Positions 1,399-20,272 are shown, numbered from the stretch's first letter. The stretch is DNA of 34,840 nucleotides from Nanobdellota archaeon (GCA_038046545.1 JBBSVZ010000049.1:1-34840), one strand, 5' to 3'. The notes: generated by a model not told the origin, from the sequence alone. A program made the numbers and translations.

Positions 1399-1536
1399 AG
1401 CCCCGTAGTGTAGCGGTCAATCATACTGCCCTCTGGTGAGGGTTTCGCCCCTCAAGGACGAGTGGGATAAATCCCACAAAATGGCAAAAACCTTCAGCGA
1501 AAGGCAGTGACGGCGGTTCGAATCCGCCCGGGGCTA
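1399..1536 (+). tRNA. tRNA-Gln(CTG) with intron at canonical position 37/38
   Basis: Acceptor AGCCCCG(1399-1405)/CGGGGCT(1529-1535), discriminator A. Anticodon stem CTGCC/GGCAG, anticodon CTG at 1433-1435. T arm GGCGG-TTCGAAT-CCGCC. A1-U72 pair as in archaeal tRNA-Gln; CCA not encoded. Confidence 0.95.
1437..1501 (+). other. 65-nt tRNA intron with relaxed bulge-helix-bulge motif
   Basis: Outer helix GAGGGTTT(1438-1445)/AAACCTTC(1488-1495). Central helix CTCT/AGCG with one mismatch. 3-nt bulges GGT and AAA. Internal hairpin GTGGGAT-AA-ATCCCAC. Confidence 0.85.
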
Positions 1537-1543
1537 TTACTGT

Positions 1544-1568
1544 TTTTGTGACATTTGAGGGTCGTTGG
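1544..1568. repeat. Left subterminal inverted repeat of the element
   Basis: TTTTGTGACATTTGAGGGTCGTTGG matches the reverse complement of 6428-6452 at 21/25 positions. Confidence 0.85.
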
Positions 1569-1638
1569 ACTCCCCGGGCGAGTTACTCTTTTTACGCCAT
1601 CAGACTTAATTCACCTTTAAGCCAGGGAGGGTGCAGGT

Positions 1639-2148
1639 ATGATCTTCGATGAAGACATAAACATCAAGCTTGATACGGATAAGGGCTTGTTCTTTGGCCG
1701 AAACTTAACATACGACGAAAAAGTTTACCTTGAAAGCCACGGTTATGAGAGCGGAATGTTTGTGCCGATCGGAAAACCGCGCCAGGAGGAATGCTGGATC
1801 AAAAAGAACGGAGTTGAAAGTCTAAAACACACCTTCTTAGTTCAAAACATCAAACAACATCTGCGCAAATGCACCAAAGACATCAAAATAAACATTACAA
1901 AAGATGCGGATATTGAGTTCAGAGACCAACGCGGCCAGCTAGTTGGGATCGAAATCGAAACAGGAACTCAATACAAGAAAAACAGAAAAGGATTTGACAC
2001 AAAATTCAGCCAACTCAGGAAAAGATACAAGCGGCTCTACATCGTTCTAACTACAAAAAAATACAAGAGACATTACAAGCGTGCCTTGCATATGCACATC
2101 TACCTTCGCCAGGAAATTCCCACCCTGTTCAGAAGGATATATGGATAA
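1639..2148 (+). CDS. Element-borne protein with PD-(D/E)xK-like motif (possibly replication-relaxation-like)
   Basis: ESLKHTFLV...DADIEFRDQRGQLVGIEIETG; strong RBS (GGAGG/GCAGGT) upstream; basic C terminus. Confidence 0.55.
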   Translation: MIFDEDINIKLDTDKGLFFGRNLTYDEKVYLESHGYESGMFVPIGKPRQEECWIKKNGVESLKHTFLVQNIKQHLRKCTKDIKINITKDADIEFRDQRGQLVGIEIETGTQYKKNRKGFDTKFSQLRKRYKRLYIVLTTKKYKRHYKRALHMHIYLRQEIPTLFRRIYG

Positions 2149-2184
2149 GTATTATCTGCAAAAATTAGGGTGTGTATTCTAATT

Positions 2185-2201
2185 CCTTATCGTCGATAAG
2201 G
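2185..2201. repeat. Perfect palindrome CCTTATCG-T-CGATAAGG flanked by short direct repeats
   Basis: 8-bp arms with 1-nt spacer; AAATTAGGGTGTG, AAATCAGGGTATG and AAATTGGGGGTGCG lie nearby. Confidence 0.6.
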
Positions 2202-2324
2202 CCGCAAAATCAGGGTATGAAATTGGGGGTGCGTTCCTTTATAAATAAACTGCCACCCATACCAGCCGTGAGTCGGAGGTTTTGAATAGCAAATTTTAAA
2301 GCGCAGAGCTTTATTTTTGTCAAA

Positions 2325-4901
2325 ATGACGAAGATATTCATTTCACACTCCAGTAAAGATAATGAGTTCATAAAGAAGTTAGTTGAAAAATTACCAACAG
2401 ACACCTATTGGGTTGACTATGTTGATCTGGATTTAGGCGATAGCATTCTTGAAAAAATAGAGGCAGGAATTATTGAGTGTTCAGACTTTTTGCTTATACT
2501 TAGTAGAAATTCTCTTGAATCAAAATGGGTCAAATATGAATCTGAAATGGCAACTATCAGGTCATTAAAGGATGGCTTTATGAGAATCCGAGTTGTAAAC
2601 ATAGATGGGTGTAAAGTTCCCTTGAGATTTCAACCTTTAAAATATCTAACAATCGAAGAAGAAAAAACACAAGATAACCTTCTAGATAAACTCGTAAGTT
2701 CCATAATGAAGAAAAGTAGTGGAGGATCAGATACGGAATTTAGACGGTTTGTGGATAGGAATAGTGAGACCGATCAATTACAAGGATACATTTTGGATAA
2801 AGAAACGAGTATAATAGTTTTAATGGGCATGTACGGAATAGGAAAAACCACGCTACTGCTAGAATCAATATCTCGAATATGGAAAAACCCGCAAATTACA
2901 AAAATTGTCTTCTCTGAAGCGTTTTTTGGCTCAAGACTTACAAAAGAATTGTGCGCGTTGGCGAATCTTGAGTTACCCTCTGAAACCGCAGATAAAGATG
3001 AGCTAAAAAATAAAAACATTGCTGCAATTGAAGAACTGATAAGCCAAAAAAGAATACTGATTTTTGATGATTTTCAAAAAATTCTCGATGAAACGGGATC
3101 CCCTGCCGAAGATGTAGCGGCTCTCATCAAACATTGTGCCAAGATTTCCCTTCTCAAGAAATCTCCCTTATTCATCGTATCTACGAGAAAACCGAATTTA
3201 AATATCGAAGATCCTGATTCACAAAAAAATCTGAAAGTTACCGGTCTTGAAGACAAATATATCGAAATGATACTTAAGATGGAGTTAAAAAATATTTCAA
3301 AGTATGAAGATAGGAGCCAAGATGAAAGAAAGAGATTTATTCAGAGTTTATGCACATATCCACTTGCAGCAAAATTTGCAGCGCCATTGCTAGAAGATTA
3401 CTCGCTTGAATTTGTGATGGATAATGTGAAATACATAAAACAGCTGAGAATAGATTTGGCAAGAGTGTTAATTGGCAAAGCGAAAATATCTGAATCACAG
3501 GAACAAATACTGGAGATTTTGGGATTCTGCGAGGACAAATTAAGTCTAGCAGAAATTTTAGAGATTCTTGGAAAAGAAAGAGAAGCCATCTTAATAGACA
3601 TTGACTATCTCGTCCAGCACAACTTTTTAGAATTTGAAAAATTAAATATTGGTTTGCATCCAATCCTAGTCGATATTTTTTATTCAAAAGCCATGACATC
3701 TGGCATAATAAAGAAAGATGGTGAACGGGTAATACAAAAATTTAAGGAAATCTTCTCAAAAACTGAGTCAGGCAAAATAGAATGGGTACATTGGCTATCA
3801 AGATTACAACGGATTTATTTAATTTCAGGCAGATGGAATGAAGCTAAAGATCTTTGGAGAAATTGCGAAGGTGAACTGAAGGTGGCGATTAGAGACCTAT
3901 ACACTAAATCAAAAAATTATGACCTTGCCTTACAATACTGCGATAAGTATTTGATGGATGACCCCGACTCTTTTTCTGTTAATGTATGGAAAATAAAATG
4001 TTTGATCCGTATGTTGGATTTTCAAACAGCACAAATAACTATAGATGAAATGCTTCAAAAATATCAAAATGATATAATTTTACTGCATCAACAAGCAAGA
4101 ATTTTCCTAAAGAATAAGAAAAGCAAAGATCATCTGAAACGCGCAAAAGAGTTGCTTCTTAAAATTCTAGCAAAGAATCCGAGATATATCCCAGTTAAAA
4201 GAGATTTAGCCGAAACCTTGCTCTACTTGGGTGAGATACCTGACTCTGAAAGATATTTAACTGAGGCATTGGAAATGGCGCCTTTAGACGAATACCTATT
4301 AACGCTATACGCTAAAGTTATGGGCAAACAAAACCGAATTGAACCCGCAATTGAAAGATTAAAATTAGCTCTGGGTAATATTCCTGATTCTGCTCCGTTC
4401 TTTCATCGGCTTGGTTGGTTGTACCAGAAAAAAGGGGACATTAAAAATGCGTATGACAACTACTTAAAGTCCTGCGAATTAAATAGCAACTATTTTGAAG
4501 CCAGATTAGGACTTATTTTTTGTTGTATACAACTAAATAAATTGGATGGCGCAAAAAAAGAGATTGATGAGTTGGAAAAGACCATCACAGGTCAATCAAG
4601 ATTCGTTTTGGAATCTTTGAAAGCGGAATATTTATCTAAACGAGGAGAACTGGAAGCTGCATATGAGTTATCTCAACGAGTTCTTAAAACGGATAGGTCG
4701 GAGATAACTTTAGGCGCAGCAATTAAGATAGGAATTGAAATGGCAAAAAAAAGGTTTGATGAAGGACTCTCCGCTAAAGCCAAAGAAATTGCAAATAGCG
4801 TTGAAGATTATATTCGACAACTCGAAGAAGAAAACCCTTTAGCTACCTATCTTCAAACTTATAAAAATCGGCTCAAAGAACTTTTTGCAAGGTTAAACTG
4901 A
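2325..4901 (+). CDS. TIR - STAND NTPase (NB-ARC-like) - winged helix - TPR protein (prokaryotic NLR/Avs-like, putative antiviral)
   Basis: TIR: IFISHSSKD...LSRNSLESKWVKYE (catalytic Glu position). FVDR motif, Walker A GMYGIGKT, Walker B ILIFDDFQ, YPLA, LHPIL. C-terminal TPR repeats (e.g. FFHRLGWLYQKKGDIKNAYDNYLKSCELNSNY). Confidence 0.9.
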   Translation: MTKIFISHSSKDNEFIKKLVEKLPTDTYWVDYVDLDLGDSILEKIEAGIIECSDFLLILSRNSLESKWVKYESEMATIRSLKDGFMRIRVVNIDGCKVPLRFQPLKYLTIEEEKTQDNLLDKLVSSIMKKSSGGSDTEFRRFVDRNSETDQLQGYILDKETSIIVLMGMYGIGKTTLLLESISRIWKNPQITKIVFSEAFFGSRLTKELCALANLELPSETADKDELKNKNIAAIEELISQKRILIFDDFQKILDETGSPAEDVAALIKHCAKISLLKKSPLFIVSTRKPNLNIEDPDSQKNLKVTGLEDKYIEMILKMELKNISKYEDRSQDERKRFIQSLCTYPLAAKFAAPLLEDYSLEFVMDNVKYIKQLRIDLARVLIGKAKISESQEQILEILGFCEDKLSLAEILEILGKEREAILIDIDYLVQHNFLEFEKLNIGLHPILVDIFYSKAMTSGIIKKDGERVIQKFKEIFSKTESGKIEWVHWLSRLQRIYLISGRWNEAKDLWRNCEGELKVAIRDLYTKSKNYDLALQYCDKYLMDDPDSFSVNVWKIKCLIRMLDFQTAQITIDEMLQKYQNDIILLHQQARIFLKNKKSKDHLKRAKELLLKILAKNPRYIPVKRDLAETLLYLGEIPDSERYLTEALEMAPLDEYLLTLYAKVMGKQNRIEPAIERLKLALGNIPDSAPFFHRLGWLYQKKGDIKNAYDNYLKSCELNSNYFEARLGLIFCCIQLNKLDGAKKEIDELEKTITGQSRFVLESLKAEYLSKRGELEAAYELSQRVLKTDRSEITLGAAIKIGIEMAKKRFDEGLSAKAKEIANSVEDYIRQLEEENPLATYLQTYKNRLKELFARLN

Positions 4902-5104
4902 ATCACTAGAAAACAAGCTGTCCGATGCACTTTACGCTCCAATTGCAAGTCTCTATTTCTTGAGTGCCATAACTCCGAGTTCTACTTATATTAAAGCAAG
5001 AACTTTCTATTTTGCAGTCACTTGTTCGACTGGGTGACTCGCAGCGACCACCACGTAGGTGTCGGCTCTTTATTTAAATCGCAGGCAGCAGTCCGGGACG
5101 AACC

Positions 5105-6298
5105 ATGAGATTTGATCCGCATAAGCACCAAGAAAAGTACTTACGGTGGAAACAAGCCGGAATGCAGTTTGATGGCCTTTCTGAGCCGATTGTCGCGCTA
5201 TTACGGCGATATTTCGCGGACATGGAGGTTGGAGCCAACATCAATCCCGCAAGCCGCCGTGGAGCCCGATCTTACGGGCGTATGCGCAATCTCAAAGGCA
5301 AAATGCATACACTTTGCCTCATCTTTCAAGACGAGCTCGGGATAGCCACCTTAGAAGAGCTTGAATGCAAAGAACGCGAGATATTGCTTTTAACAAAGAA
5401 AATGCGAGAAGGCAAAGTTCTTTCCCGAAAAAGCGACCGAATGCCGCTGACCGCCATAGGCACGTATGTCAAAATCATAAAAGCATTTTGGCATTGGTAC
5501 ATGCGAGCTCAGAGAAAGGAAGGCAAAAACATCAATGACATTACAATCGATCTGGATGGCCGCGATGAAAAACCAAAATTCTCCTATTTCACTATCGATG
5601 ATGTGAAGATGATGTGTGATTGGGCAACACCAGAATATAAAACGCTTATGATGTTTTTATTCGATAGCGGCATACGAGCACCAACCGAACTAATGAACGT
5701 CAGAGTTAATGATTTAGAATGGGATGCAAAGAACAATTACTACACCCTGAGCATCCGAGAAGAGACAAGCAAGACATTTGGACGAAGAATCAAACTCCTC
5801 CTCTGCTCAGGCATCCTTCGAGGATATATCGAAACCATGGGTTTGAAAAATAACGACTACATTTTCACCAGAACACCTCAACGAGTAAACCAACAACTCA
5901 AGCGGCTGGCATATCGCGTTCTCAAGATCGGAAAACAAAACGGAAAACAGCACATCGAAAACGGAATATCGCTCTACGACTTTAGGCACTGCAGCGCGTG
6001 TTACTGGCTTCCCCGATACAAATCAGAAAGCGCGCTGAAATACCGCTTCGGATGGAAGCGCAGCGAAATGATTCACTACTACACCGAACTGCTCGGCATG
6101 AAAGATACCATAACCGATGAAGACCTTTACGTTGACATAACAAAATCAGACCTCGAAAAGCAAATACAAGACAAAGGCGAAGAAATCGAATTATTACAAG
6201 AACAAATGAAAAAACAAGACGAGGTTATGACAAAAATAATGAAAACAATGGAAGCACTCCAACTCGAAAAAGGCGCCCAAACTCCGACACAATCTTAA
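5105..6298 (+). CDS. Tyrosine recombinase/integrase with C-terminal coiled coil
   Basis: Catalytic residues: DSGIRAPTEL (R), TSKT (K), YDFRHCS (HxxR position with Tyr in place of His), FGW (H/W), IHYY (Y). Appears intact; lies next to the attR-like repeat. Confidence 0.92.
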   Translation: MRFDPHKHQEKYLRWKQAGMQFDGLSEPIVALLRRYFADMEVGANINPASRRGARSYGRMRNLKGKMHTLCLIFQDELGIATLEELECKEREILLLTKKMREGKVLSRKSDRMPLTAIGTYVKIIKAFWHWYMRAQRKEGKNINDITIDLDGRDEKPKFSYFTIDDVKMMCDWATPEYKTLMMFLFDSGIRAPTELMNVRVNDLEWDAKNNYYTLSIREETSKTFGRRIKLLLCSGILRGYIETMGLKNNDYIFTRTPQRVNQQLKRLAYRVLKIGKQNGKQHIENGISLYDFRHCSACYWLPRYKSESALKYRFGWKRSEMIHYYTELLGMKDTITDEDLYVDITKSDLEKQIQDKGEEIELLQEQMKKQDEVMTKIMKTMEALQLEKGAQTPTQS

Positions 6299-6427
6299 TT
6301 ATGAGCTCAAACTTAATAGTGTTATGAGCCCGTTCGAAACCCATATTCTTGAAGAACACGATCGCCTTCTGCGCCAATACCATTGCGCGAATATCGACGA
6401 AGTCATAACAAAACTCAAAGAAAAATG

Positions 6428-6452
6428 CCAACGACTTGCAATTGTCACAAAA
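6428..6452. repeat. Right subterminal inverted repeat of the element
   Basis: CCAACGACTTGCAATTGTCACAAAA, inverted partner of 1544-1568. Confidence 0.85.
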
Positions 6453-6479
6453 TGAGTTGTCGGTCGCCCGGGGCTATTA
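6445..6479 (+). repeat. att-like site R1 (attR of the integrase element)
   Basis: TCACA-N15-CGCCCGGGGCTATTA; the core equals the tRNA 3' end. Confidence 0.9.
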
Positions 6480-6507
6480 ACAAATTTAACATTAATTACA
6501 TAACAAG

Positions 6508-7149
6508 TTACTTTGCAGTACCAAATGGATCTCTTGCAATACTTTTCATCAAATTGAAAACTAATACTAGCATAGCTAAAAACAAGAAAACTGCCAACAT
6601 CATGTCTTGAATCCAATTAAAGTATGCTTGGAGACTCCAAAAAAGAACCGATGACAAAGTTGCAGCAGGGAAAAAAAGTCTCGTTAGGAAATTAAACCAA
6701 GCTTCCCGTCTTAAATCTTTTTCGGAATCAACTAGCTCGTTATATATTTTTATGGATTCGTTGAAAATTGAAACTATTTCCTTTAAATCTTGAGAATCAT
6801 CAGGATGTGATGATTCATTAATTTGATTTCTTACTCTATTTAGTTTTCGTTTTTCCTCATTTAATTTATGCGAAAATTGGGACACTCGAACTAGATTTGC
6901 CGTTAATTCCTTCAATATATTATCAACTCTATCAAGACTATCTTGGGTATAGGTAAGCCAGAGCTTATGTGATAATTTTTTAATTTGGTCTATTGAATAC
7001 TTTTTACTGTTGTACAAATGAATGCCTCTATGAACCTCATCATCGATTGGCGAAATTCTGACCTCGGTTTTTTCATGTATCTCTTTCAAGTCATCGAGAA
7101 GTATTTCTGAAGGTTTTCTATTGTTCAATTGAAAAGCGACAGAAATCAT
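6508..7149 (-). CDS. Hypothetical protein, coiled coil plus two C-terminal TM helices (module 1)
   Basis: 213-aa AT-rich ORF; helical heptad region followed by two hydrophobic segments. Confidence 0.7.
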   Translation of the reverse strand: MISVAFQLNNRKPSEILLDDLKEIHEKTEVRISPIDDEVHRGIHLYNSKKYSIDQIKKLSHKLWLTYTQDSLDRVDNILKELTANLVRVSQFSHKLNEEKRKLNRVRNQINESSHPDDSQDLKEIVSIFNESIKIYNELVDSEKDLRREAWFNFLTRLFFPAATLSSVLFWSLQAYFNWIQDMMLAVFLFLAMLVLVFNLMKSIARDPFGTAK

Positions 7150-7269
7150 TTAAAATTCCCACCAAGATTTTTTTTCTCTGCGTTTTCTACGTATCAGTTT
7201 AGGTCGCACATAAAAAGTAACTGTTTTTCCTTTAGCTCGGAAGCTAATCCTTCGACGACTTGCCATCAT
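7150..7269 (-). CDS. 39-aa highly basic small protein (module 1)
   Basis: Manual translation MMASRRRISFRAKGKTVTFYVRPKLIRRKRREKKSWWEF*. Its TAA directly abuts the ATG of 6508-7149, and an AT-rich TATA-like box lies about 20 nt upstream. Confidence 0.55.
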   Translation of the reverse strand: MMASRRRISFRAKGKTVTFYVRPKLIRRKRREKKSWWEF

Positions 7270-7322
7270 AAGACTAAATATTAGTTTGTTTAAATATTAT
7301 TTGTTTAGTTGGGGAATTGCCA

Positions 7323-7369
7323 GGATTCCTCTTTTTAACAGATTTGTTCATTTTCTACCCGGGGCTATA
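7323..7369 (+). repeat. att-like site R2
   Basis: GGATTCCTCTTTTTAACA-GATTTGTTCATTTTC-TACCCGGGGCTATA; shares 20 identical bp (7328-7347) with R3 (8327-8346). Confidence 0.85.
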
Positions 7370-7405
7370 ACCTTTTTAAAGAAAAGATGGCTATCTAATT
7401 GAGAT

Positions 7406-7717
7406 ATGACAAATAAAATCTCAAATGGAACGGCACATAAAGTGCCTCCAGATTTAAGTAAAGCTCTAATTTCCGATAAAGCATCGCTATCAAAATGGGA
7501 AGGTCTTACTCCCCTTGCGCGTAATGAGTGGATATGCTGGGTTACTTTCGTTAAAAAAGAAGAGACGAGAAAGGAACACATTAAGAGGCTGACCAATGAG
7601 CTCAAGGAAGGGAAGCGCCGGCCGTGCTGCTGGATAGGTTGCATTCATCGAAAGGATAAGTCGATAAGCCCTTCGATAAAAGGGATACTCGCTAAGCGAA
7701 ATAGAAAAATTAGTTGA
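7406..7717 (+). CDS. YdeI/OmpD-associated family protein (module 2)
   Basis: VPPDLSKAL...WEGLTPLARNEWICWVTFVKKEETRKEHI...GKRRPCCWIGCIHR. Confidence 0.85.
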   Translation: MTNKISNGTAHKVPPDLSKALISDKASLSKWEGLTPLARNEWICWVTFVKKEETRKEHIKRLTNELKEGKRRPCCWIGCIHRKDKSISPSIKGILAKRNRKIS

Positions 7718-7753
7718 ACAGTTCCGCCACGTTCCTGCCTAAAATCCGTAAAC

Positions 7754-7777
7754 TTTAAATACTATAGCAGCTATAGT
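7754..7777 (+). promoter_or_regulatory. TATA box plus palindromic operator of the TA operon
   Basis: TTTAAATA (7754-7761) overlapping the perfect inverted repeat ACTATAGC-A-GCTATAGT (7761-7777), 6 nt before ATG 7784. Confidence 0.7.
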
Positions 7778-7783
7778 GGCTGT

Positions 7784-7987
7784 ATGCCAACCACAATCCA
7801 GATTGAAGAAGAGACGCGAGACAAGATAAAATCGTTTGGGGCAAAAGGGGAAACCTACAATGATATTATCAACCGGCTTTATGATGTTGCTGTCAAACAC
7901 CAGCTTCGCGAATTCCTGTTTTCTTCCAAAGACTCTGTTCCGATCGATGAAGCAATTGCTCGAGCGGAGAAGCGTTGGCGCAAGTAA
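7784..7987 (+). CDS. Ribbon-helix-helix-type antitoxin (module 2)
   Basis: MPTTIQIEEETRDKIKSFGAKGETYNDIINRL, a typical archaeal antitoxin N terminus; overlaps the downstream toxin-like gene. Confidence 0.75.
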   Translation: MPTTIQIEEETRDKIKSFGAKGETYNDIINRLYDVAVKHQLREFLFSSKDSVPIDEAIARAEKRWRK

Positions 7988-8316
7988 TAATCAATAAGCG
8001 CCTTGAAGACGAGATAAACAGGCGCTTCAAAGGAAAGGCGCCTGAAGTGTTGAGGCATCTTAAGAGCCTCGCCGAAGCCCCGAACAAAGGAAAATCTCTT
8101 GGCCACGTAGGAGGAATCGTCATCAAAGAAGTTAAATATGAAGGATTCCGGTTCTACTTTGTAACTGATGGTTACAAGCTCGCAATCTACAAAATTGAGG
8201 AACTGAGCGAACTGCTTATCCAGTTTGTGCGCATGTCTGACAAGAAACACCAGCAAAGGACAATAGAAGAGATAAAACTAGTACTTCGAACGATAGGACC
8301 TGCAGGGTTCAAATAG
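7975..8316 (+). CDS. RelE/ParE-like toxin (module 2)
   Basis: 113 aa, basic; LKSLAEAPNKGKSLG...IKEVKYEGFRFYF...RMSDKK pattern; 13-nt overlap with the antitoxin. Confidence 0.6.
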   Translation: MAQVIINKRLEDEINRRFKGKAPEVLRHLKSLAEAPNKGKSLGHVGGIVIKEVKYEGFRFYFVTDGYKLAIYKIEELSELLIQFVRMSDKKHQQRTIEEIKLVLRTIGPAGFK

Positions 8317-8321
8317 ATATG

Positions 8322-8365
8322 AAATCCCTCTTTTTAACAGATTTGTCTATTGTCCGCCCGGAGCT
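8322..8365 (+). repeat. att-like site R3
   Basis: AAATCCCTCTTTTTAACA-GATTTGTCTATTGTC-CGCCCGGAGCT. Confidence 0.85.
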
Positions 8366-8408
8366 GCTTTTGACAAATCTTTATTAACAGAACTTAAATT
8401 TTCAGGCA

Positions 8409-8921
8409 ATGACAAAACGGCTTGAGTCCATTATAAAAGAAGAGATCACTCCTGCGAATTTGGTGTCTTTATTGAGGCCTATAGCTGCTTACATCGGGCT
8501 AAAAAAATTGAAAGGCAAAGAGCTCAGCATATATTTGGGCGCGGTGATGCTGACCGATGTTCTGGACGGAATTTTGGCTAGAAAGCAAGGTCCTTCGCCT
8601 TTGGGCGGGCACATCGACAGGATCTCAGATCATGCGACAGAGGTAATCGCCTATTCCTGCCTTGGGTATCCGGTCCAGGCGAAAGTTCACGCAGTCCGAG
8701 ACTTAATTGTTGACTTCACCCTTGCTATGGGTTGGGCGGACGAAAAAGACAAACCAAGGAGCGACCCTTACTCAAAAACTGCTTATGCTTCGCTTAAGGC
8801 AGCCGCATTCATGCTGACCCCTCTGAACAGAAAAGCCGGCAATGCATTAGGATTGTTAGCTACAGCGGTCTCATTGGAAAGGGCTCTTGAGCTTTACGAT
8901 CCCGTTGTACAGAACCGCTGA
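8409..8921 (+). CDS. CDP-alcohol phosphatidyltransferase family protein (module 3)
   Basis: PANLVSLLR and the signature DVLDGILAR...GGHIDRISD (DxxDGxxAR...GxxxDxxxD); own TATA box TTTATTAA at 8380-8387. Confidence 0.85.
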   Translation: MTKRLESIIKEEITPANLVSLLRPIAAYIGLKKLKGKELSIYLGAVMLTDVLDGILARKQGPSPLGGHIDRISDHATEVIAYSCLGYPVQAKVHAVRDLIVDFTLAMGWADEKDKPRSDPYSKTAYASLKAAAFMLTPLNRKAGNALGLLATAVSLERALELYDPVVQNR

Positions 8922-8953
8922 AAGCAAATAACGGCAGCCGAGCATATAGCTCC

Positions 8954-8988
8954 TAACAAAAACACTGAGTGCCCGCCCGGGGCCATAC
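8954..8988 (+). repeat. att-like site R4
   Basis: TAACA-AAAACACTGAGTGCC-CGCCCGGGGCCATAC; 31/35 identical to R5 (9730-9764). Confidence 0.85.
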
Positions 8989-9009
8989 TTCTTTTGTAAT
9001 AGCCCTATT

Positions 9010-9417
9010 TTATGCTTCTTGCAGGAATTTTTGCGGTGTAAGTATTCTAATTTTCGCATACATTCCAATAGCGAGCAAGTGCCTGTCTTGGCTTACGATG
9101 CAATTTGCTTTCCCTTCCAACGCACTTTCGATGAATTTGTCATCGTCAGGGTCTTCTAGAACAACCCTTATTTTTTTCTTTGGGTACACCATGTACCCGA
9201 GGTCGATTATTTTTTGTACCGCCAGCCTTCGCTCATCATAATGTCCTACTTTCTCTGCGAGTTCTCGGTACAGCATAACACGGCGGTATTCCTCAAGAAT
9301 TTCAGGTGAAACAATGAGAACATGCTTTTTCTCACTTATCGAAGTTAAAATGCTCAAAGAAGGGCCAGACCAGAAAGTACCTGATACAAGTACATTGGTA
9401 TCAAGGACGATTCTCAG
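9010..9417 (-). CDS. PIN-domain (VapC-like) toxin, probable CTG start (module 4)
   Basis: The frame extends upstream of the tracked TTG (9357) to CTG-AGA-ATC-GTC-CTT-GAT-ACC-AAT (xRIVLDTNVLVSG); also DPDDDKFIESA and IVSQDRHLL motifs. Confidence 0.85.
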   Translation of the reverse strand: MRIVLDTNVLVSGTFWSGPSLSILTSISEKKHVLIVSPEILEEYRRVMLYRELAEKVGHYDERRLAVQKIIDLGYMVYPKKKIRVVLEDPDDDKFIESALEGKANCIVSQDRHLLAIGMYAKIRILTPQKFLQEA

Positions 9418-9667
9418 TCTTACGAACTCGCTGGATCATGTCAAGGACATCGCTTTGGTTGAGGTTTGCTTTTTTTGCCGCGGCTCTTAGGGGTCGGGTT
9501 ACCTCATCCCACGAAAGATTCTTCACCTTCCTCAAAAGCAAGTCATTGCCTTCGAGAAAAAATAGGAGTTTTTCTCCTTCCTTCAATCCCATTTTTTGCC
9601 GTATTTCTGATGGAATTGCAATCTGCCCTCGCGCGCTCACGGTTCCAATCTCAATAGCATTCACCAT
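9401..9667 (-). CDS. AbrB/MazE/SpoVT-family antitoxin (module 4)
   Basis: VSARGQIAIPSEIRQKMGLKEGEKL motif; overlaps the PIN gene start. Confidence 0.9.
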   Translation of the reverse strand: MVNAIEIGTVSARGQIAIPSEIRQKMGLKEGEKLLFFLEGNDLLLRKVKNLSWDEVTRPLRAAAKKANLNQSDVLDMIQRVRKTENRP

Positions 9668-9715
9668 ATCTTGTAAATAAGACGTATCTTGTATATTAAC
9701 CTTTCGCTAAAAAGC

Positions 9716-9764
9716 GGAATTCTCATTTTTAACAAAAACAATGTATGCCCGCCCGGGGCTATAC
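9716..9764 (+). repeat. att-like site R5
   Basis: GGAATTCTCATTTTTAACA-AAAACAATGTATGCC-CGCCCGGGGCTATAC. Confidence 0.88.
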
Positions 9765-9813
9765 CATTACATTTTGTTAATTTTTCGCAATATTTATATA
9801 TTTGTAATGGTAT
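9761..9813 (+). promoter_or_regulatory. Fic promoter bracketed by an 11-bp perfect inverted repeat
   Basis: ATACCATTACA (9761-9771) and TGTAATGGTAT (9803-9813) enclose the TATA box TTTATATA (9793-9800). Confidence 0.6.
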
Positions 9814-9822
9814 TTCTTGTCC

Positions 9823-10668
9823 ATGAAGGTAATTGAACGGAAGGGATTTTATTACTTAGGCCATAGTTTTAGGAAAGCGGGGAAAGTGACATATCGTGAG
9901 ACTTACCTAGGAAAGCAGGTTCCGCAGAATATCGATGAAATTTCAGAATTCTTTTTGCGACTCATACTTCAAGAAGATGAATTTATCAAACTCGAAAAAA
10001 TAAGAAAAAACTTCAAGGAGCAATGGAATAAATATCCCGAAAGTATCAAAAAGAAGATTCTTCTTGACTTCTCAATAGACTTTACTTATAACACTAACGC
10101 AATTGAAGGCTCTACCATAACAAAAGAAGAAACTGATGAGATTGTAAAAGCAAAAATATCTCCAAACAAGCCTTTGCCAGACATATTAGAGACGATCTCT
10201 CATTCAAAGGTCTTTTTTATGGCATTGCATGAGAAAAAACCGCTATCTGCGAGAATGGTTTTAGATTGGCATCATGAGCTATTCAAGGAAACAAAGCCTG
10301 ATATCGCCGGAAAAATTCGCGAATATCTTGTTAGAGTCGGCGACTACAGAGCACCTGACTGGCAAGACTTGAAGAAATTAATGAAAGATTATTTTGTTTG
10401 GTATGAAAAAAATAAGAGAAGGATGCACCCCATTGAACTGGCAGCAAGGGCACATTACAAATTCGAGAAAATCCACCCATTCGGCGATGGAAATGGAAGG
10501 GTTGGACGTCTCATAATCGCATACATGCTCAAAGAAGGCGGATATCCATCATTGATATTAGAGTATAAGAAAAGAAAATCTTACTATCATGCATTGAAAA
10601 GAACTGAAAATGACTTTGTAAACTACTTAATAAAAAGATACCTAAGCAGACATAAGGAGTTTTTATAG
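9823..10668 (+). CDS. Fic-family AMPylase (module 5)
   Basis: Canonical HPFGDGNGRVGR motif; TYNTNAIEG inhibitory-helix-like motif; the ATG at 9823 lies 22 nt after the TATA box. Confidence 0.92.
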   Translation: MKVIERKGFYYLGHSFRKAGKVTYRETYLGKQVPQNIDEISEFFLRLILQEDEFIKLEKIRKNFKEQWNKYPESIKKKILLDFSIDFTYNTNAIEGSTITKEETDEIVKAKISPNKPLPDILETISHSKVFFMALHEKKPLSARMVLDWHHELFKETKPDIAGKIREYLVRVGDYRAPDWQDLKKLMKDYFVWYEKNKRRMHPIELAARAHYKFEKIHPFGDGNGRVGRLIIAYMLKEGGYPSLILEYKKRKSYYHALKRTENDFVNYLIKRYLSRHKEFL

Positions 10669-10710
10669 AATCTATTTTTTAACAAAAATGCTCAATGCCC
10701 ACTCAGGGGT
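10668..10710 (+). repeat. att-like site R6 (degenerate)
   Basis: GAATCTATTTTTTAACA-AAAATGCTCAATGCC-CACTCAGGGGT; same 15-nt spacing, core 7/11 identical to CGCCCGGGGCT. Confidence 0.65.
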
Positions 10711-10767
10711 AGACTAGTCAAGGCCACAAACCAAAGAAAATAACAAAGTAAAAATAAAAAGTATTAG

Positions 10768-11124
10768 TTAATCCTTCCAGGGCGTCATTAACTGAAAGTA
10801 ATTCCCGTCAGGGTCTGCAAATGTTGCAATCCATGAGCCGCCGGCATCATATGGCTCCGCGATAACTTTGGCGCCAGTGGATTTTATTCTCTTGAATTCC
10901 TTCTTTACTTCTTTTGTTTCAAGATTGAACATTATTCTCGCGGGCTCCTTTGATTTTCCCTTGACTTTAGAATGTGCCCCTATAGTGAAGAACGTCTTTC
11001 CTACCTGCCATCCTGCCCATAAGCCGTCTTCCATGTCAGCAGGCTTGTTGAAAACCTTGGCATAAAATTTGGCAAGGACTTTCGGATTAGCAGTTCCAAT
11101 CATTACCGAGTTTAGATTTAACAT
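10768..11124 (-). CDS. VOC/glyoxalase family protein
   Basis: LAKFYAKVF...GAKVIAEPY...ATFADPDGNYFQL. Confidence 0.88.
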   Translation of the reverse strand: MLNLNSVMIGTANPKVLAKFYAKVFNKPADMEDGLWAGWQVGKTFFTIGAHSKVKGKSKEPARIMFNLETKEVKKEFKRIKSTGAKVIAEPYDAGGSWIATFADPDGNYFQLMTPWKD

Positions 11125-11134
11125 ATTATCACCT

Positions 11135-11686
11135 TTATTTGTAAAAAAGAAGAACGTTGCCTGAGTTAAAAACCTTTGTTTTAACTAGAGCCAGTTGAAT
11201 CCGCTCTTTGAGGCCATCGAAAAGGGGTTTTCCTGCCCCGAGCACCACTGGGTTCACCATTATCTGGAATTCGTCAATTAATCCCTCGCTGATGAAGGTT
11301 AGTGCAAGGTCTGAGCTGCCGAGGATTGCAATGGCTTTTCCTTCCTGGTTTTTTAATTTCCTTAGCTCATCCGCAGCATTATTTTTGACTAGCCGTGTGT
11401 TTTCCCAATCTGTTTTTATCAAAGTCCTTGAAAAAACAATTTTTTCAGTATTGTTCATTTGCGCTGCGACGATTGGATCATTCTTTAGGGCATCAGCTGA
11501 CGGCCAGTAAGTTGCCATGAGCTCGTAAGTCTTCCTTCCGAAGAGCAGCAGGTCGGATTCGCCGACATTCTTTATTGCGAAATCATTGAACTCCTTATTA
11601 TCTGCGTTATGCCAGTCTATCTCGTGGTTTGGTCCTTCATAATAGCCGTCAAGGCTGACCATCATGAACAAAAGAACTTTTCTCAG
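11135..11686 (-). CDS. Dihydrofolate reductase-like (RibD C-terminal domain) protein, probable CTG start
   Basis: xRKVLLFMMVSLDGY...LLFGRKTYE...GSSDLA...GLIDEF...PVVLGAGKPLF; CTG at 11686 lies 1 nt after the upstream stop codon. Confidence 0.88.
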   Translation of the reverse strand: MRKVLLFMMVSLDGYYEGPNHEIDWHNADNKEFNDFAIKNVGESDLLLFGRKTYELMATYWPSADALKNDPIVAAQMNNTEKIVFSRTLIKTDWENTRLVKNNAADELRKLKNQEGKAIAILGSSDLALTFISEGLIDEFQIMVNPVVLGAGKPLFDGLKERIQLALVKTKVFNSGNVLLFYK

Positions 11687-11687
11687 T

Positions 11688-12578
11688 TTATTTCTCGTAT
11701 GCCTGCTTTAATTTTTTTATGTCAAGTTTATGCATCTTGAGCAATTCAGTCATCACTCTTTCCGATTTCTTTGCATCTTTATCATTCAACATCCCATCCA
11801 ATTCTATTGGAACGATTTGCCAAGACACGCCAAATTTATCTTTAAGCCAACCGCATTGGCTCTGCTCTCCGCCTTTAGTGAGCTTCTGCCAATAAGTGTC
11901 TATTTCATCCTGCGTATCACAATTTATTACAAATGAAATGGATTCGTTGAAGCCAAACTTGTGCGGTCCTGATCCATCCATTGCTACAAATTCTTGTCCT
12001 TCAAGAAAAAAAGAAGCGTGCTTTATGCTGCCTGCCTTCCCGGTTTCTCCTTTCCCATAATATAAAATATGGTCGATATGAGCGTACTTGAATTGGGCTG
12101 TGTAAAACTTTATGGCAGATTCGGCTTTTCCAAGGTCCTTACCAACAAAGAGGAGACATGGAGTAATATGCGGTTGTGAAGGCGAAAGTATGAGCTGCCA
12201 GGCAACTCCGAATTTATCCTTCAGAAATGCATACCTTTCGCTGAAGGGGTATTTGTCAAGCGGCATAAGGATTTCACCGTTTTGTGAGAGTTTTTTGAAA
12301 AGATAATCAATGGCGGGTTTTGTCTTGCAATACACAAAAAAAGAAATTGCCGGGGAGAATTTGAATACTGGTCCGCCGTTTAGGGCCAAGAAATCCTGCC
12401 CCATGAGTTTGAAAGAAACAGTCAGTACAGAACCTTTGGGCTGGCCAGAAACCGCTGCACTTCCAGCATCATAACGGGTGATGATTCCAATCTTTGATTT
12501 TTTAAAAACAGAATCATAAAAATCCACAGCCTCTTCGGCATTGCTGTCGAACCAAAGGCAAGGAACTATTTTTTGCAT
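11688..12578 (-). CDS. Two-domain VOC protein (PhnB / 3-demethylubiquinone-9 3-methyltransferase-like)
   Basis: MQKIVPCLWFDSNAEEA...ALNGGP...LKDKFGVAWQ and a second copy QCGWLKDKFGVSWQIVP. Confidence 0.9.
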   Translation of the reverse strand: MQKIVPCLWFDSNAEEAVDFYDSVFKKSKIGIITRYDAGSAAVSGQPKGSVLTVSFKLMGQDFLALNGGPVFKFSPAISFFVYCKTKPAIDYLFKKLSQNGEILMPLDKYPFSERYAFLKDKFGVAWQLILSPSQPHITPCLLFVGKDLGKAESAIKFYTAQFKYAHIDHILYYGKGETGKAGSIKHASFFLEGQEFVAMDGSGPHKFGFNESISFVINCDTQDEIDTYWQKLTKGGEQSQCGWLKDKFGVSWQIVPIELDGMLNDKDAKKSERVMTELLKMHKLDIKKLKQAYEK

Positions 12579-12593
12579 ATTTGCTCCATTGCC

Positions 12594-13073
12594 TTACTTC
12601 AAGCTTTCAGCTAATTTGTCAAAGCTTTCATTCCAGCTCTGAATTGTCAGTTCAGTCATTGTCCCTTCAGGATGTCCATCGTGACACAGAGTCATTTTCG
12701 TTTTTCCATCAATATCTTCAAATGTAACTGTCACTTTCATTTCCATGGGAAAGTCCACGCCCATACCATAATGAGTTGCAGGCACAACATTGCCTTTTTC
12801 GTCGGAAAATGAATCTGTACAAACAATTTTTTTGAAAGGAACGATTTCCTTGTATATTCCTGTGCTCCAGAATTCCTTACCGGTAAAATCTCCTTCTTCT
12901 CCGCGCATGCAAAGCAAGTATTTTCCTCCAACACGAAAGTCTATCTTAGCAACAGGGCAGCTGAAAATTTTTGGACCCCACCAGCGCATAGCCTCTTTTG
13001 GTACTGTCCATGCGTTCCATACGAACTTGCTCGGCGCATCGAAGATGCGAGTAATTATCAATTCGCTTGCCAT
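12594..13073 (-). CDS. SRPBCC / AHSA1-like protein
   Basis: ITRIFDAP...VWNAWT...WWGP...DFRVGGKY...WNESFDKL. Confidence 0.9.
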   Translation of the reverse strand: MASELIITRIFDAPSKFVWNAWTVPKEAMRWWGPKIFSCPVAKIDFRVGGKYLLCMRGEEGDFTGKEFWSTGIYKEIVPFKKIVCTDSFSDEKGNVVPATHYGMGVDFPMEMKVTVTFEDIDGKTKMTLCHDGHPEGTMTELTIQSWNESFDKLAESLK

Positions 13074-14438: not shown

Positions 14439-15851
14439 TTGACTAACAGGTTTTTAGGACTTACTGACATCGAGCGAGACCAGATGCTAGGCGCGCTCGG
14501 CTTCGGGTCGCTTGATGATCTTTTTTCTGCAGTCGTGCCTCCAGAGCACCAGTATTCCGGCAAGATGACCGAACTTGGCGATGCAAAAAGCGAACTGGAA
14601 GTTAGGTTGCACCTGGCGGAAATAGCCTTTCAGAATCGCAATGTCGAACCGCAGGCGATTTTCATCGGTGGCGGCCATTATCAGAGGGAAATACCCTCGG
14701 CAAACCAGATGATAGCTGGAAGAGGCGAATGGATGACTCCTTACACTCCTTACCAGGCTGAGGCTGCCCAAGGCATACTCGCAACTCTTATCGACTACCA
14801 GAGTTTAGTTAAGGAGATGACAGGGATGAAGATTGCGAATGCAGGGCTTTACCACGGAGCAAATTCACTGGTTGAAGCAACCTTTATGGCGTGCAGGATA
14901 ACTGGCAGGAATAAGGTTCTTTATTCGGAAGGCCTGCACCCGACTGCAATTGCCAATCTTCAAACCGCGTTCAATCCCAAAATATATTCTCAGGAATTCG
15001 AGCTTGCAAGCATACCCTCGACTAATGGAATCACGTTATCTAAGACTATTGAAGAATTAGTTGATGACAAGACTGCAGCGGTAATCGTCCAGAATCCGAA
15101 CTTCTTCGGGTTGCTTGACGGCATGGACGACCATGCTGATGCGATTCATGAGAAAGGCGCTCTGTATATATCATACGGCGGCGGGGACCAGATTTCTCTT
15201 GCATTGATTAAGCCGCCCGGAGAATTCGGCGCTGCTATTTACGCTGGAGAAGGACAGCACTTCGGAATTCCTGTAGGTTACGGCGGCCCTCACATTGGCA
15301 TGCTCGCAATGTCTGCAAGCCTTGATGACTCCGGAGGCAAGAACATCAGACAGCTCCCTGGCAGGCTTATTTTGCAGGCTGAAGACATGAACGGCAAAAG
15401 AGCGTTTCGACTTGGCCTTCAGACAAGAGAGCAGCACATAAGAAGGGAGAGAGCAACATCAAACACGTGCACTGCTGAAACACTCATCGCTGTCATGAGC
15501 ACAATATGGTTCGCAATCAAAGGCGAAGCTGGCGTCAGGGAAGCAGCATCACAATCTTATCACATTGCACATTATCTAGCAGGTGAAATCTCCAAACTCC
15601 CAGGGTATAACCTTCTTTACGGCGGGAATTTCTTCAATGAGTTCGTCGTCCAGGCGCCTCAGCCGGCATCAAAAATCGTCAATGCGCTTTCAGGAAGGGG
15701 AATTTTTGCAGGCGTGCCGCTTGAGGAAAGGTTCCCTAATTCTGGTTTTGAAGAGAATTCTATTCTCATGGCGGCAACTGAAATGAACAACAGCAAAGCG
15801 CATATCGGTAAACTGTTGGAGGGCTTGGCATATTATGGAACTGCTAACTGA
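14439..15851 (+). CDS. gcvPA: Glycine dehydrogenase (decarboxylating) subunit 1
   Basis: TPYTPYQAEAAQG, QNPNFFG, YGGPHIG, LPGRL, LQTREQHIRRERATSNTCT. Confidence 0.95.
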   Translation: MTNRFLGLTDIERDQMLGALGFGSLDDLFSAVVPPEHQYSGKMTELGDAKSELEVRLHLAEIAFQNRNVEPQAIFIGGGHYQREIPSANQMIAGRGEWMTPYTPYQAEAAQGILATLIDYQSLVKEMTGMKIANAGLYHGANSLVEATFMACRITGRNKVLYSEGLHPTAIANLQTAFNPKIYSQEFELASIPSTNGITLSKTIEELVDDKTAAVIVQNPNFFGLLDGMDDHADAIHEKGALYISYGGGDQISLALIKPPGEFGAAIYAGEGQHFGIPVGYGGPHIGMLAMSASLDDSGGKNIRQLPGRLILQAEDMNGKRAFRLGLQTREQHIRRERATSNTCTAETLIAVMSTIWFAIKGEAGVREAASQSYHIAHYLAGEISKLPGYNLLYGGNFFNEFVVQAPQPASKIVNALSGRGIFAGVPLEERFPNSGFEENSILMAATEMNNSKAHIGKLLEGLAYYGTAN

Positions 15852-19934: not shown

Positions 19935-20272
19935 CGCCTAAATTTGCACTCAAGCGCTGTGCAAGCTATCATCTTTCCGGAAAATTTTTCATCAATTTAA
20001 ATAGTGAGCGAATAAACTCGGTTCCTCGTCGGAAATCTTGCGGAAAATTCTACCAAAAGTATATGAAGAAGTCCAGTTTAGAAACTATTGCCACGGTAGT
20101 CAATCCTGGTAAGACAACTGCTCTGAGCAAGCAGTATCCGCAAGGATTTCCCGGTTCAAAAACTTTTCGCTCAAAAAGTTGAAACTCCGGGCCGTGGCGA
20201 CCTTTTATCACTAAACTGAAAAAAATAAAACTCTTCAAGGGTTGATAATGCATCCAATTTCAAAGTCGAATG

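Follow-up and report, generated by a model that had tools for sequence, protein, structure and literature searches.

The window analysed here, 34,840 nucleotides long, is contig C49 of G000 (GCA_038046545.1, JBBSVZ010000049.1), the genome of a Nanobdellota archaeon, a small groundwater archaeon. It contains a series of small gene units, separated by short repeated sites, behind a tRNA-Gln gene. Judged from its sequence and from comparison with related arrays, the series appears to be a real, integron-like cassette system anchored at the tRNA. G000 is a metagenome-assembled genome (MAG) of 1.57 Mb in 198 contigs, with 40.8% G+C and 93% completeness. Sites in the window are called R1–R6 and sites on a second contig of G000, C182, are called S1–S4; L numbers denote loci (L001 is the C182 locus, L094 belongs to G047 and L135 to G084) and G numbers denote genomes. 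All data are MAG or metagenome contigs and are comparative only, with the long contigs behind L125, L128 and L114 covered in part.

The tRNA-Gln anchor and its repeated core

The 3' end of the tRNA-Gln(CUG) gene recurs along the window. Its core, CGCCCGGGGCT, is present in exact copies at 1525, 6465 and 9750, with one mismatch at 8355 and 8974, and with two mismatches at 7356; at 10700 there are four mismatches, and that copy is identified via its arm, by alignment or profile only. The spacings from core to core are 4940, 891, 999, 619, 776 and 950 bp, so that the six recurrences and the distances described in an earlier note on this DNA hold. Core matches at up to two mismatches number 9 in the window against 2.84 expected, a count reached by 1 of 100 shuffles. 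ARAGORN did not detect the tRNA-Gln(CUG) gene in the window; the gene contains an intron and was recovered by Rfam. The features of the locus are as follows, where E values given for sites refer to a profile of 27 external sites.

1399–1536, plus strand: tRNA-Gln(CUG), intron of about 68 nt (Rfam RF00005, 48.4 bits; anticodon loop read as CUG).
1525–1535 plus AT, plus strand: 3' end of tRNA-Gln(CUG), the attB/attI-like anchor, read from the sequence.
1537–6464, plus strand: integrase-bearing element adjoining the tRNA, with exact cores at 1525 and 6465.
1639–2148, plus strand: open reading frame (ORF) of 169 amino acids (aa), carried by the integrase element; without a match in Pfam, NCBIfam or PHROG.
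2325–4901, plus strand: 858-aa TIR–STAND NTPase–TPR protein, defence-like cargo (Pfam TIR_2 5e-17; ATPase_2/NACHT/NB-ARC; TPR_19 3.6e-19).
5105–6298, plus strand: 397-aa tyrosine recombinase, candidate cassette integrase (PF00589, 30.1 bits with a cut-off of 27.1; phrog_1 integrase, 1.3e-11).
6324–6455, plus strand: 43-aa ORF that follows immediately on the integrase gene, with a stop that overlaps the inner box of the P arm.
6429–6477, plus strand: R1, attR of the integrase element; P arm GACTTG (6433–6438) followed by TGTCACAAAA (6443–6452), 12 nt, core 6465–6475.
6476–7355: cassette 1, 880 bp; 213-aa protein on the minus strand (6508–7149), no significant family.
7320–7368, plus strand: R2, cassette-type; GGATTC-N-TTTTTAACA, type-B spacer GATTTGTTCATTTTC, core TACCCGGGGCT (E 7e-9).
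7367–8354, plus strand: cassette 2, 988 bp; YdeI/OmdA (7406–7717), DUF7557/VapB-like (7784–7987) and a 113-aa RelE-like partner (7975–8316).
8319–8367, plus strand: R3, cassette-type, type-B spacer (E 1.5e-10).
8366–8973, plus strand: cassette 3, 608 bp; 170-aa CDP-alcohol phosphatidyltransferase-like protein (8409–8921; PF01066, 2.6e-6).
8938–8986, plus strand: R4, cassette-type, type-A spacer AAAACACTGAGTGCC, outer box degenerate (E 3.4e-5).
8985–9749, minus strand: cassette 4, 765 bp; VapB/AbrB-type antitoxin (9401–9667) and PIN-domain VapC (9010 to about 9411).
9714–9762, plus strand: R5, cassette-type, type-A spacer, the best-scoring copy (E 2.1e-10).
9761–10699, plus strand: cassette 5, 939 bp; 283-aa Fic/DOC protein (9817–10668; Pfam Fic, 2.9e-22).
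10664–10712, plus strand: R6, the last and most degenerate cassette-type site, core CACTCAGGGGT (E 4.1e-6).

A family of one-armed sites

Beyond the core, the cassette-type sites share an upstream arm that is not tRNA sequence. The consensus of 32 aligned sites reads GGAATCC, 3 nt, TTTTTAACA, a 15-nt spacer, CGCCCGGGGCT, and then AT. Mean column identity in this alignment is 74%, TTAAC is invariant, and the site spans about 50–52 bp with a core of 11–13 bp. There are two types of spacer, (A/G)AAACAnTnAGTG(C/T)C and GATTTGTCTATTGTC. In each of the six sites of the window, the end of a box (TCACA in R1, TAACA in R2–R6) lies exactly 15 nt ahead of the core, which confirms the T(A/C)ACA motif noticed earlier. 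The arm itself, also noticed earlier, is real: the profile from the 27 external sites recovers R2–R6 and misses R1. A profile of the arm alone was too weak for use, missing R4 and S1–S3.

Conservation on the right of the core is limited to AT, and the information content is about zero past position +2; the cassette site is therefore one-armed. No conserved right-hand (P') arm was found in the cassettes, and an arm-complementarity matrix flags the arms of the integrase element only. At some cores a T-rich stretch on the right side coincides with boxes that resemble promoters. The orientation of the arm is fixed relative to the tRNA and is independent of gene orientation, all 32 aligned sites being direct repeats. 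Because genes lie on either strand while the orientation of the site stays constant, it is reasoned that the arm serves recombination and not expression. R1–R6 all lie outside called genes, as had been claimed, and the arm of R6 adjoins the Fic stop codon. The claim that the genes carry their own TATA boxes stands in part: of 11 genes, 3 have a strict TATA pattern upstream, whereas the others have only looser, A/T-rich boxes. The distal-most site is the most degenerate in both arrays of G000 (R6, again as proposed, and S4), and there is otherwise no monotonic trend along the arrays.

The possibility that the sites are attC hairpins was considered and rejected. When nine sites were folded as single-stranded DNA, R5 alone beat its shuffles (z −2.36); R3 and R4 reached −0.9 and −1.0, six of the nine were at or above the shuffle mean, and z for the sites other than R5 ranged from +1.1 to −0.96. 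What is conserved is the sequence, which agrees with the earlier statement that the sites are not hairpins. These results bear on the idea of a canonical integron, or of attC sites clustered without an integrase (CALIN), served by an enzyme of the IntI type. The compact cassettes, the cargo rich in toxin-antitoxin (TA) genes, the adjoining tyrosine recombinase and a YYYYAAC-like box in the arm would all suit such a system, and archaeal integrons exist (PMC9668308, accessible text). Nevertheless, one site in nine folding better than shuffles (z −2.4), conservation of sequence where attC conserves structure, genes in both orientations and an integrase with no NCBIfam match at E<=0.01 make this reading barely credible.

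Cassettes and their cargo

In each unit of the window the left edge is the core, and 25–56 nt separate it from the first gene. Genes are on the minus strand in cassettes 1 and 4 and on the plus strand in cassettes 2, 3 and 5. Pfam backs the gene content first read from the sequence, namely YdeI, a RelBE-like pair, a CDP-alcohol transferase, a VapBC-like pair and Fic. In cassette 2 it assigns YdeI/OmdA and the DUF7557/VapB-like protein, the 113-aa partner having no Pfam assignment, and in cassette 4 the scores are 6.5e-14 for PIN_3 and 1.3e-10 for MazE_antitoxin.

Cassette 2 looks like two fused cassettes, one with YdeI and one with the DUF7557/RelE-like pair. Standalone cassettes of 600–656 bp that hold either YdeI or the DUF7557/RelE-like pair are found as unit 2 of C182, L116 and L128, and the TA pair alone makes up a cassette of 600–629 bp in L116 and L128. 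No clear remnant of a site is seen between the YdeI and DUF7557 genes (7718–7783).

Across all arrays, the cassette cargo consists mostly of TA pairs, Fic and YdeI. The TA genes comprise PIN with MazE/AbrB, DUF7557/VapB-like with RelE-like, DUF4258, DUF2683 pairs and a weak YoeB-like match; the other cargo comprises Fic/DOC, YdeI/OmdA, a DoxX-like membrane protein and the CDP-alcohol transferase-like protein. Neither truncated genes, remnants of larger elements nor conjugation genes were seen in the arrays by Pfam and tblastn, and tblastn found no integrase fragment in 6476–13000 of the window or in the other arrays examined.

The start of vapC in cassette 4 is unusual (9357–9411, minus strand). 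The PIN N-terminus VLDTNV precedes the first ATG, GTG or TTG and overlaps the vapB stop at 9401–9403; the gene either uses a non-canonical start or has lost its start. Right after R6, on the minus strand at 10768–13073, lie four tightly packed genes (glyoxalase-like, RibD_C, a 3-dmu-9_3-mt/PhnB-like tandem and AHSA1/SRPBCC). There are no sites between them, and they are outside the array as defined.

A second array and confinement to tRNA-Gln loci

G000 has a second array on C182, behind a tRNA-Gln(UUG) gene that ends near 15197. Its cores are at 15783, 16450 and 17144, with a degenerate one at 20059, and the last 39 nt of this tRNA gene are identical to those of tRNA-Gln(CUG) in the window. 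No integrase was found by tblastn on the C182 array up to the contig end. The tRNA-Gln(UUG) gene (C182, about 15076–15197; about 14077–14198 in L001) has two introns, in the D-arm region and in the anticodon loop. Rfam returned nothing at gathering score for this locus, and the gene was read by eye.

Over the whole of G000, the site profile matches only C49 (six sites) and C182 (three to four sites). The profile of 27 external sites finds, in this order, R3, R5, R2, R6, R4, S1, S3 and S2 (E 1.5e-10 to 0.0017) and S4 (0.12), and nothing further in G000 below E=1. As this profile was built from sites of other records, the control of genome-wide specificity is not circular. Searched by itself with at most one mismatch allowed, the core has 12 copies in G000; five of these are elsewhere, all without the arm. 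The motif is thus not scattered over the genome independently of the tRNA, the profiles matching the two tRNA-Gln loci only. At the other end of the window, positions 1–120 are 91% identical to 19461–19580 of contig C54, in the end region of that contig, which may be a repeat or an assembly overlap.

Arrays in metagenomes and other genomes

Metagenome contigs were scanned once with the pattern TTTTAACA-N18-CCGGGGCTAT, which gave 20 loci. Thirteen are true sites with the full arm, including the C182 locus of G000 itself and one in G047. In total, 27 external sites of the cassette family were collected from 12 loci, with arrays of up to five units of 0.5–0.8 kb behind tRNA-Gln:

L125: tRNA-Gln(CUG), then five units of 742, 795, 536, 622 and 596 bp.
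L116: tRNA-Gln(CUG), then units of 569 and 611 bp.
L121: five sites. L120: three. L128: three or four. L114: three.
G047 (L094): tRNA-Gln(UUG), then units of 167 and 696 bp.

The units are compact, 24 of 29 non-redundant units bounded on both sides measuring 525–988 bp (median 683). In five loci the first cassette adjoins an intact tRNA. Degenerate cores are R6, S4, L125 5787 and L121 2276.

Genomes were sampled at the order level and at the class level, with 150 other genomes each besides G000 and partial overlap between the samples. At the order level, 9 of 151 genomes match the site at E<=0.01, strongly only G000 (nine sites) and G047 (one site); at the class level, 6 of 151 match at E<=0.001, strongly only G000 and G096. 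Weak single matches in G184 and G264 were dismissed as chance, there being no core, no array and no integrase nearby. Further single matches of the site model are in G218, G225, G075, G079, G081, G147 and G042, and G084 (L135) matches the site profile at E 1.3e-4, with no second site or integrase on that stretch. Viral contigs gave two chance matches to the site pattern and none to the arm pattern. The 60 relatives of G000 that were compared all belong to other families and have only tRNA pieces in common with it, so that a synteny comparison between close relatives is impossible.

Terminal overlaps that would mark circular cassette contigs were seen in 0 of the 20 metagenome loci. The read-derived data come from one study (four runs, Logan contigs, about 5–7x). 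Logan contigs span R1 and R2–R5; joints at R sites were not found in them, contigs being blind to rare excision products. Loose ends at 1537/1538 are at least partly due to the 39-nt stretch common to the window and the C182 tRNA. One Logan contig resembles the window from exactly 6476 onward, where the R1 core has its right edge.

Repeats of other layouts were observed as well. In several other Woesearchaeota genomes two extra copies of the 3' end stand behind tRNA-Gln genes, 70–110 bp apart and without cargo (L092 at 3889/3988/4088 and 5230/5335/5438; L002 at 6373/6447/6536; L102 at 7472/7537/7621; L107 at 1877/1973/2084), and the short units of L092 have an inverted copy of the T arm (GGATTCGAACCGCC). 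L046 has five direct repeats of TTCTCCAACCACA (9246, 10400, 11097, 12576 and 12730), spaced 154–1479 bp, whose right flank, TCAAAATAG, is conserved. A 45%-identical integrase homologue is 4 kb away, and the repeats may be another cassette-like array with a different core.

Core-bounded cassettes common to several arrays

Arrays were compared by blastn and by alignment of the junctions. The clearest difference is between L110 and L125. L110 1–244 corresponds to L125 4234–4476 (91%), through the core at 4456, and L110 240–852 corresponds to L125 5802–6421 (81%), after the core at 5787. L110 therefore joins the sequence before one core to the sequence after the other and has exactly two cassettes fewer, with the junction in the core.

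Single cassettes are also found in different places. The cassette of DUF4258 with a zinc-finger/AbrB protein is first behind tRNA-Gln(UUG) on C182 and fifth behind tRNA-Gln(CUG) in L125; the two copies are 83% identical over 615 nt, and the homology extends from the core to just past the next core. The Fic cassette of the window (9758–10708) has 81% nucleotide identity to those in L120 and L121 and 70% to that in L128, with other neighbours in each. Its homology runs from the GCTAT of the core to the next core, and left of it in L120 there is a 34-nt remnant whose core is degenerate. Five cassette families recur across arrays at the protein level, namely Fic, DUF4258, the DUF2683 pair, the DUF7557/RelE-like pair and PIN with AbrB. 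Units do, then, vary at the core boundary, which had been proposed as a check. Between L116 and L125 the tRNA flank is 84% identical over 329 nt, the proximal cassettes differ and one distal cassette is common, a weak hint that insertion may occur at the tRNA-proximal end.

Two other explanations have to be weighed against these data. In the first, the units are decayed remnants of larger tandem integrase islands. Tandem integrations with partial tRNA repeats are common in the family of this integrase (L027, L074, L078), tandem integration is known elsewhere (10.1101/2020.12.28.424599 and a paper on Thaumarchaeota, in the accessible text of both), and some cores are degenerate. Decay should leave ragged left breaks, and the earlier note had asked whether homologues occur only as the right ends of larger elements. 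They do not: the left border is the core in every unit, homologous units elsewhere are whole and core-bounded at both ends, there are no truncated genes or integrase fragments, and most units fall within the narrow size range given above. We consider decay improbable.

In the second, the sites are a dispersed intergenic repeat, and homologous recombination or replication slippage acts between repeats of 25–50 bp. The breakpoint between L120 and L121 (see below) is in or beside a common 20-nt arm, outside the core, and the likeness of the arms could support some homologous exchange. Against this, the repeat occurs behind tRNA-Gln genes only and in one orientation, its core consists of the 3' end of the tRNA and in G096 follows the tRNA of that host, and the array includes an integrase element that has this core too. 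Moreover, the first cassette adjoins the intact tRNA in five loci, and exchange there has to take place within 11–13 bp, which is too short for homologous recombination. A dispersed repeat is accordingly given little credence.

The integrase element and its recombinase

The stretch 1537–6464 has the features of an ordinary tRNA island, with an integrase inside, exact 11-nt repeats at both ends, an intact tRNA and inverted arms. Cassettes 1–5, in contrast, have no integrase of their own. The only integrase of the array region is indeed in the tRNA-proximal 4.9-kb unit, as had been stated. The left P' arm, TTTTTGTGACATTTGAGGGTC (1543–1563), is the inverted repeat of the right P arm and gives the top score of the arm matrix, 24; the pair consists of GACTTG...TGTCACAAAA (6433–6452) and TTTTGTGACA...GGGTC (1544–1563). 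This inverted P/P' layout is also found in relatives, e.g. L010 and L003. The main cargo of the element, the 858-aa protein, has an architecture typical of anti-phage defence proteins.

At E<=0.001 the integrase has 2300 homologues, of which the closest that is not identical reaches 64% identity, and the few named ones come from Woesearchaeota, Nanoarchaeota and 'archaeon' MAGs. Relatives number 248 in genome contigs; none was found in viral contigs. The protein passes PF00589 narrowly. It has no match at E<=0.01 in NCBIfam, which we take to include an integron-integrase model, the sole match at E<=10 being an unrelated zinc-ribbon model. A profile search of PDB gave 0 matches at E<=0.01, with an archaeal XerC-like chain as the best recombinase (E 0.16). 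PF00589 is thus its only assignment from these searches, and nothing in NCBIfam or PDB marks it as IntI; by sequence it is a divergent, DPANN-specific tyrosine recombinase. For the 43-aa ORF that follows, tblastn gave weak matches (E 1e-5 to 0.9) in 10 relatives, at the corresponding place behind the integrase gene; the ORF is a candidate accessory or directionality factor.

Many relatives of the integrase mark ordinary elements of 5–10 kb at tRNA genes, some of them in tandem (L027, L074, L078). In L027, integrase-less units of 2.2 and 3.2 kb lie in tandem behind an integrase element at another tRNA (14374, 16610, 19785). The arms there are nearly identical on both sides of the core, a parallel with larger units in the same integrase family.

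That this integrase serves the cassettes is an inference, R1 having a different arm; it is drawn from the core and the geometry, which both have in common, and from their joint presence in two genomes. R1 matches the register of the cassette sites in its outer box, its inner box and its 15-nt spacing. In G096, a 54%-identical integrase has an R1-like arm, and 2.6 kb further on a cassette-type arm is joined to the core of G096 itself, CTGGCGGGGCT. In L006, which has a 57%-identical integrase, two units of 1.1–1.3 kb with related arms are located between the tRNA and the integrase gene.

It could be that another enzyme moves the cassettes and that the integrase of the window merely uses the same target. 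Such an enzyme might be an integrase with a GGAATCC...TTTTTAACA arm in its own attP, absent from this 93%-complete MAG and from the contig parts examined, or the second of the two tyrosine recombinases found in G000, a 279-aa Xer-like protein on contig C5 (G000:C5:35326-35814). This proposal draws on the arm of R1, on the lack of cassette-type sites at loci of integrase homologues (both described below) and on the arrays of L125, L116 and C182, which have no integrase in the parts examined. On the other hand, cassette-type arms adjoin an integrase of this family in G000 and G096, and related arms do so in L006. R1 keeps the register of the cassette sites, G000 yielded no recombinase beyond the two, and the core is a tRNA 3' end, the target of the integrase's own element, with no dif-like inverted half-sites. 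Taken together, these observations make a different enzyme unlikely, though it is the most serious of the alternatives.

Proposed mechanism

The explanation that we regard as probable is an array of integrase-less mini-cassettes anchored at tRNA-Gln and moved by a tyrosine integrase, most likely that at 5105–6298 acting in trans. Related genomes hold these cassettes in different orders, so that the array looks like integron-style capture built from different parts. Each cassette, mostly 0.5–1.0 kb with one to three genes in either orientation, would have one site, at its tRNA-distal end. The integrase, perhaps with the 43-aa ORF, would join the core of a free, probably circular cassette to the core at the tRNA 3' end or to that of a resident cassette. 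Cassettes could thereby be inserted, presumably next to the tRNA, excised and reshuffled, and the tRNA would be left intact. The enzyme would be supplied from the 4.9-kb element in the same tRNA and would also serve the array on C182.

Several observations weigh against this explanation. R1 is unmatched by the profile of 27 external cassette sites, and only its core, T.ACA box and spacing agree with them. Cassette-type sites were found at 0 of 80 loci with integrase homologues (profile, E<=0.05). G047 has a cassette site, and no integrase homologue was found in that genome, which is 76% complete. Among the sampled genomes, arrays of cassette-type sites occur in G000 alone, with single strong sites in G047 and G096. 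A one-armed site without a conserved partner arm for synapsis is unusual for tyrosine integrases. No excision product was seen in the MAG and metagenome contigs, and the evidence is wholly comparative. Finally, L120 and L121 are 98.7% identical over 1669 nt and diverge right after TTTTTAACA, left of the spacer and not in the core. At that point one has the type-A and the other the type-B spacer, and exchange or deletion within the common arm would fit this break better than exchange at the core.

Relation to known systems

Integrons are the textbook example of cassette capture and depend on IntI and on folded attC sites. The arrays described here resemble them in consisting of compact cassettes of one to two genes with one end site each, shared and reordered between arrays, in their TA-rich cargo, in the tyrosine recombinase, and in the occurrence of integrase-less arrays beside an integrase-bearing one. 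They differ in having one-armed att sites of the double-strand type, conserved in sequence and with a tRNA-derived core, instead of attC hairpins, and in being anchored at the 3' end of tRNA-Gln instead of at an attI beside intI. The integrase is not IntI and lies inside a mobile 4.9-kb element of its own. In place of co-oriented, promoterless ORFs, the cassettes hold genes in either orientation, some with their own promoter-like boxes. Archaeal integrons, as far as the accessible text describes them, use IntI and attC (Ghaly et al. 2022, PMC9668308).

The cassettes fit a broader class, in which units without an integrase accumulate in tandem at a tRNA att site and are mobilised in trans; cis-mobilizable elements (CIMEs), tycheposon islands and composites of the staphylococcal cassette chromosome (SCC) are members of it. 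Composite SCC islands are found in staphylococci at the 3' end of rlmH (orfX) and consist of multi-kb elements with serine recombinases. They are likewise arranged in tandem at the 3' end of one gene with site repeats in between, and some depend on recombinases acting in trans; serine recombinases, multi-kb size, a protein-coding target and bacterial hosts distinguish them from the arrays described here.

CIMEs range from a few kb to tens of kb and are seen as deletion products derived from integrative and conjugative elements (ICEs) or integrative and mobilizable elements (IMEs), single or paired, and dependent on conjugation. Like CIMEs, the cassettes are att-flanked, have no recombinase or transfer genes and stand in tandem with an integrase-bearing element at the same target, which would move them. 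Unlike CIMEs, they form rows of up to five sub-kb units with a dedicated conserved arm, draw on a pool of cassettes that extends across genomes and have no conjugation genes. CIMEs and tandem accretion at att sites have been described for streptococcal ICEs (PMC5704250, PMC7563491, accessible text).

The tycheposon islands of Prochlorococcus, in the accessible part of their description, hold integrase-bearing multi-gene elements, and their integrase-less parts are treated as remnants (10.1101/2020.12.28.424599). They share with the present arrays a tyrosine recombinase acting at a tRNA, older elements pushed inward, partial tRNA copies and adaptive or defensive cargo. As far as that text goes, they differ in that here a sub-kb cassette has its own conserved site and recurs intact elsewhere. 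In the accessible text of the Thaumarchaeota paper, the smallest cryptic integrated elements measure 2.6 kb, and it is an integrase that defines them.

A functional parallel may be seen in the dif modules of plasmids. Their pdif sites are Xer sites with inverted half-sites in alternating orientation. Here, instead, there are 32 direct repeats with a long one-sided arm and a tRNA-derived core. The modules of Acinetobacter plasmids, which use XerC/XerD at pdif sites, are also small, with one to a few genes, often TA, bounded by short sites and dependent on a recombinase encoded elsewhere; in the accessible accounts they are on plasmids without a tRNA anchor, in contrast to the chromosomal direct repeats with a tRNA core (PMC13141974, PMC6449649).

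It is the sub-kb cassettes, the dedicated conserved arm and the shared pool that set the arrays apart from CIMEs, tycheposons, SCC and dif modules. No description of such arrays was found in the literature searched, the supplementary genome lists of PMC9668308 being outside that search, and the accessible portion of PMC9897764 has nothing relevant to them.

Significance

The chances seem to us about even that the arrays represent an undescribed gene-capture platform of DPANN archaea (Woesearchaeota-type), integron-like and independently evolved. In such a platform a lineage-specific tyrosine integrase would use the 3' end of both tRNA-Gln genes as its attI and the 52-bp one-armed double-strand site as the equivalent of attC, and would circulate a community-wide pool of sub-kb cassettes, for the most part TA and Fic modules, between genomes and between both tRNA-Gln loci. 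The 52-bp site, the tRNA-Gln 3' end, the 397-aa integrase and the 43-aa ORF form a concrete set of substrates for one-armed-site recombination. The site is also a search pattern for arrays in metagenomes, where they are probably under-assembled. The hosts belong to the ultra-small DPANN archaea, and little is known of how these exchange genes. If the proposal is true, an integron-like architecture, with rows of very small, exchangeable cassettes of one function each and many TA genes among them, would have arisen in them with ordinary att-type sites, a tRNA as docking point and an unrelated tyrosine integrase.

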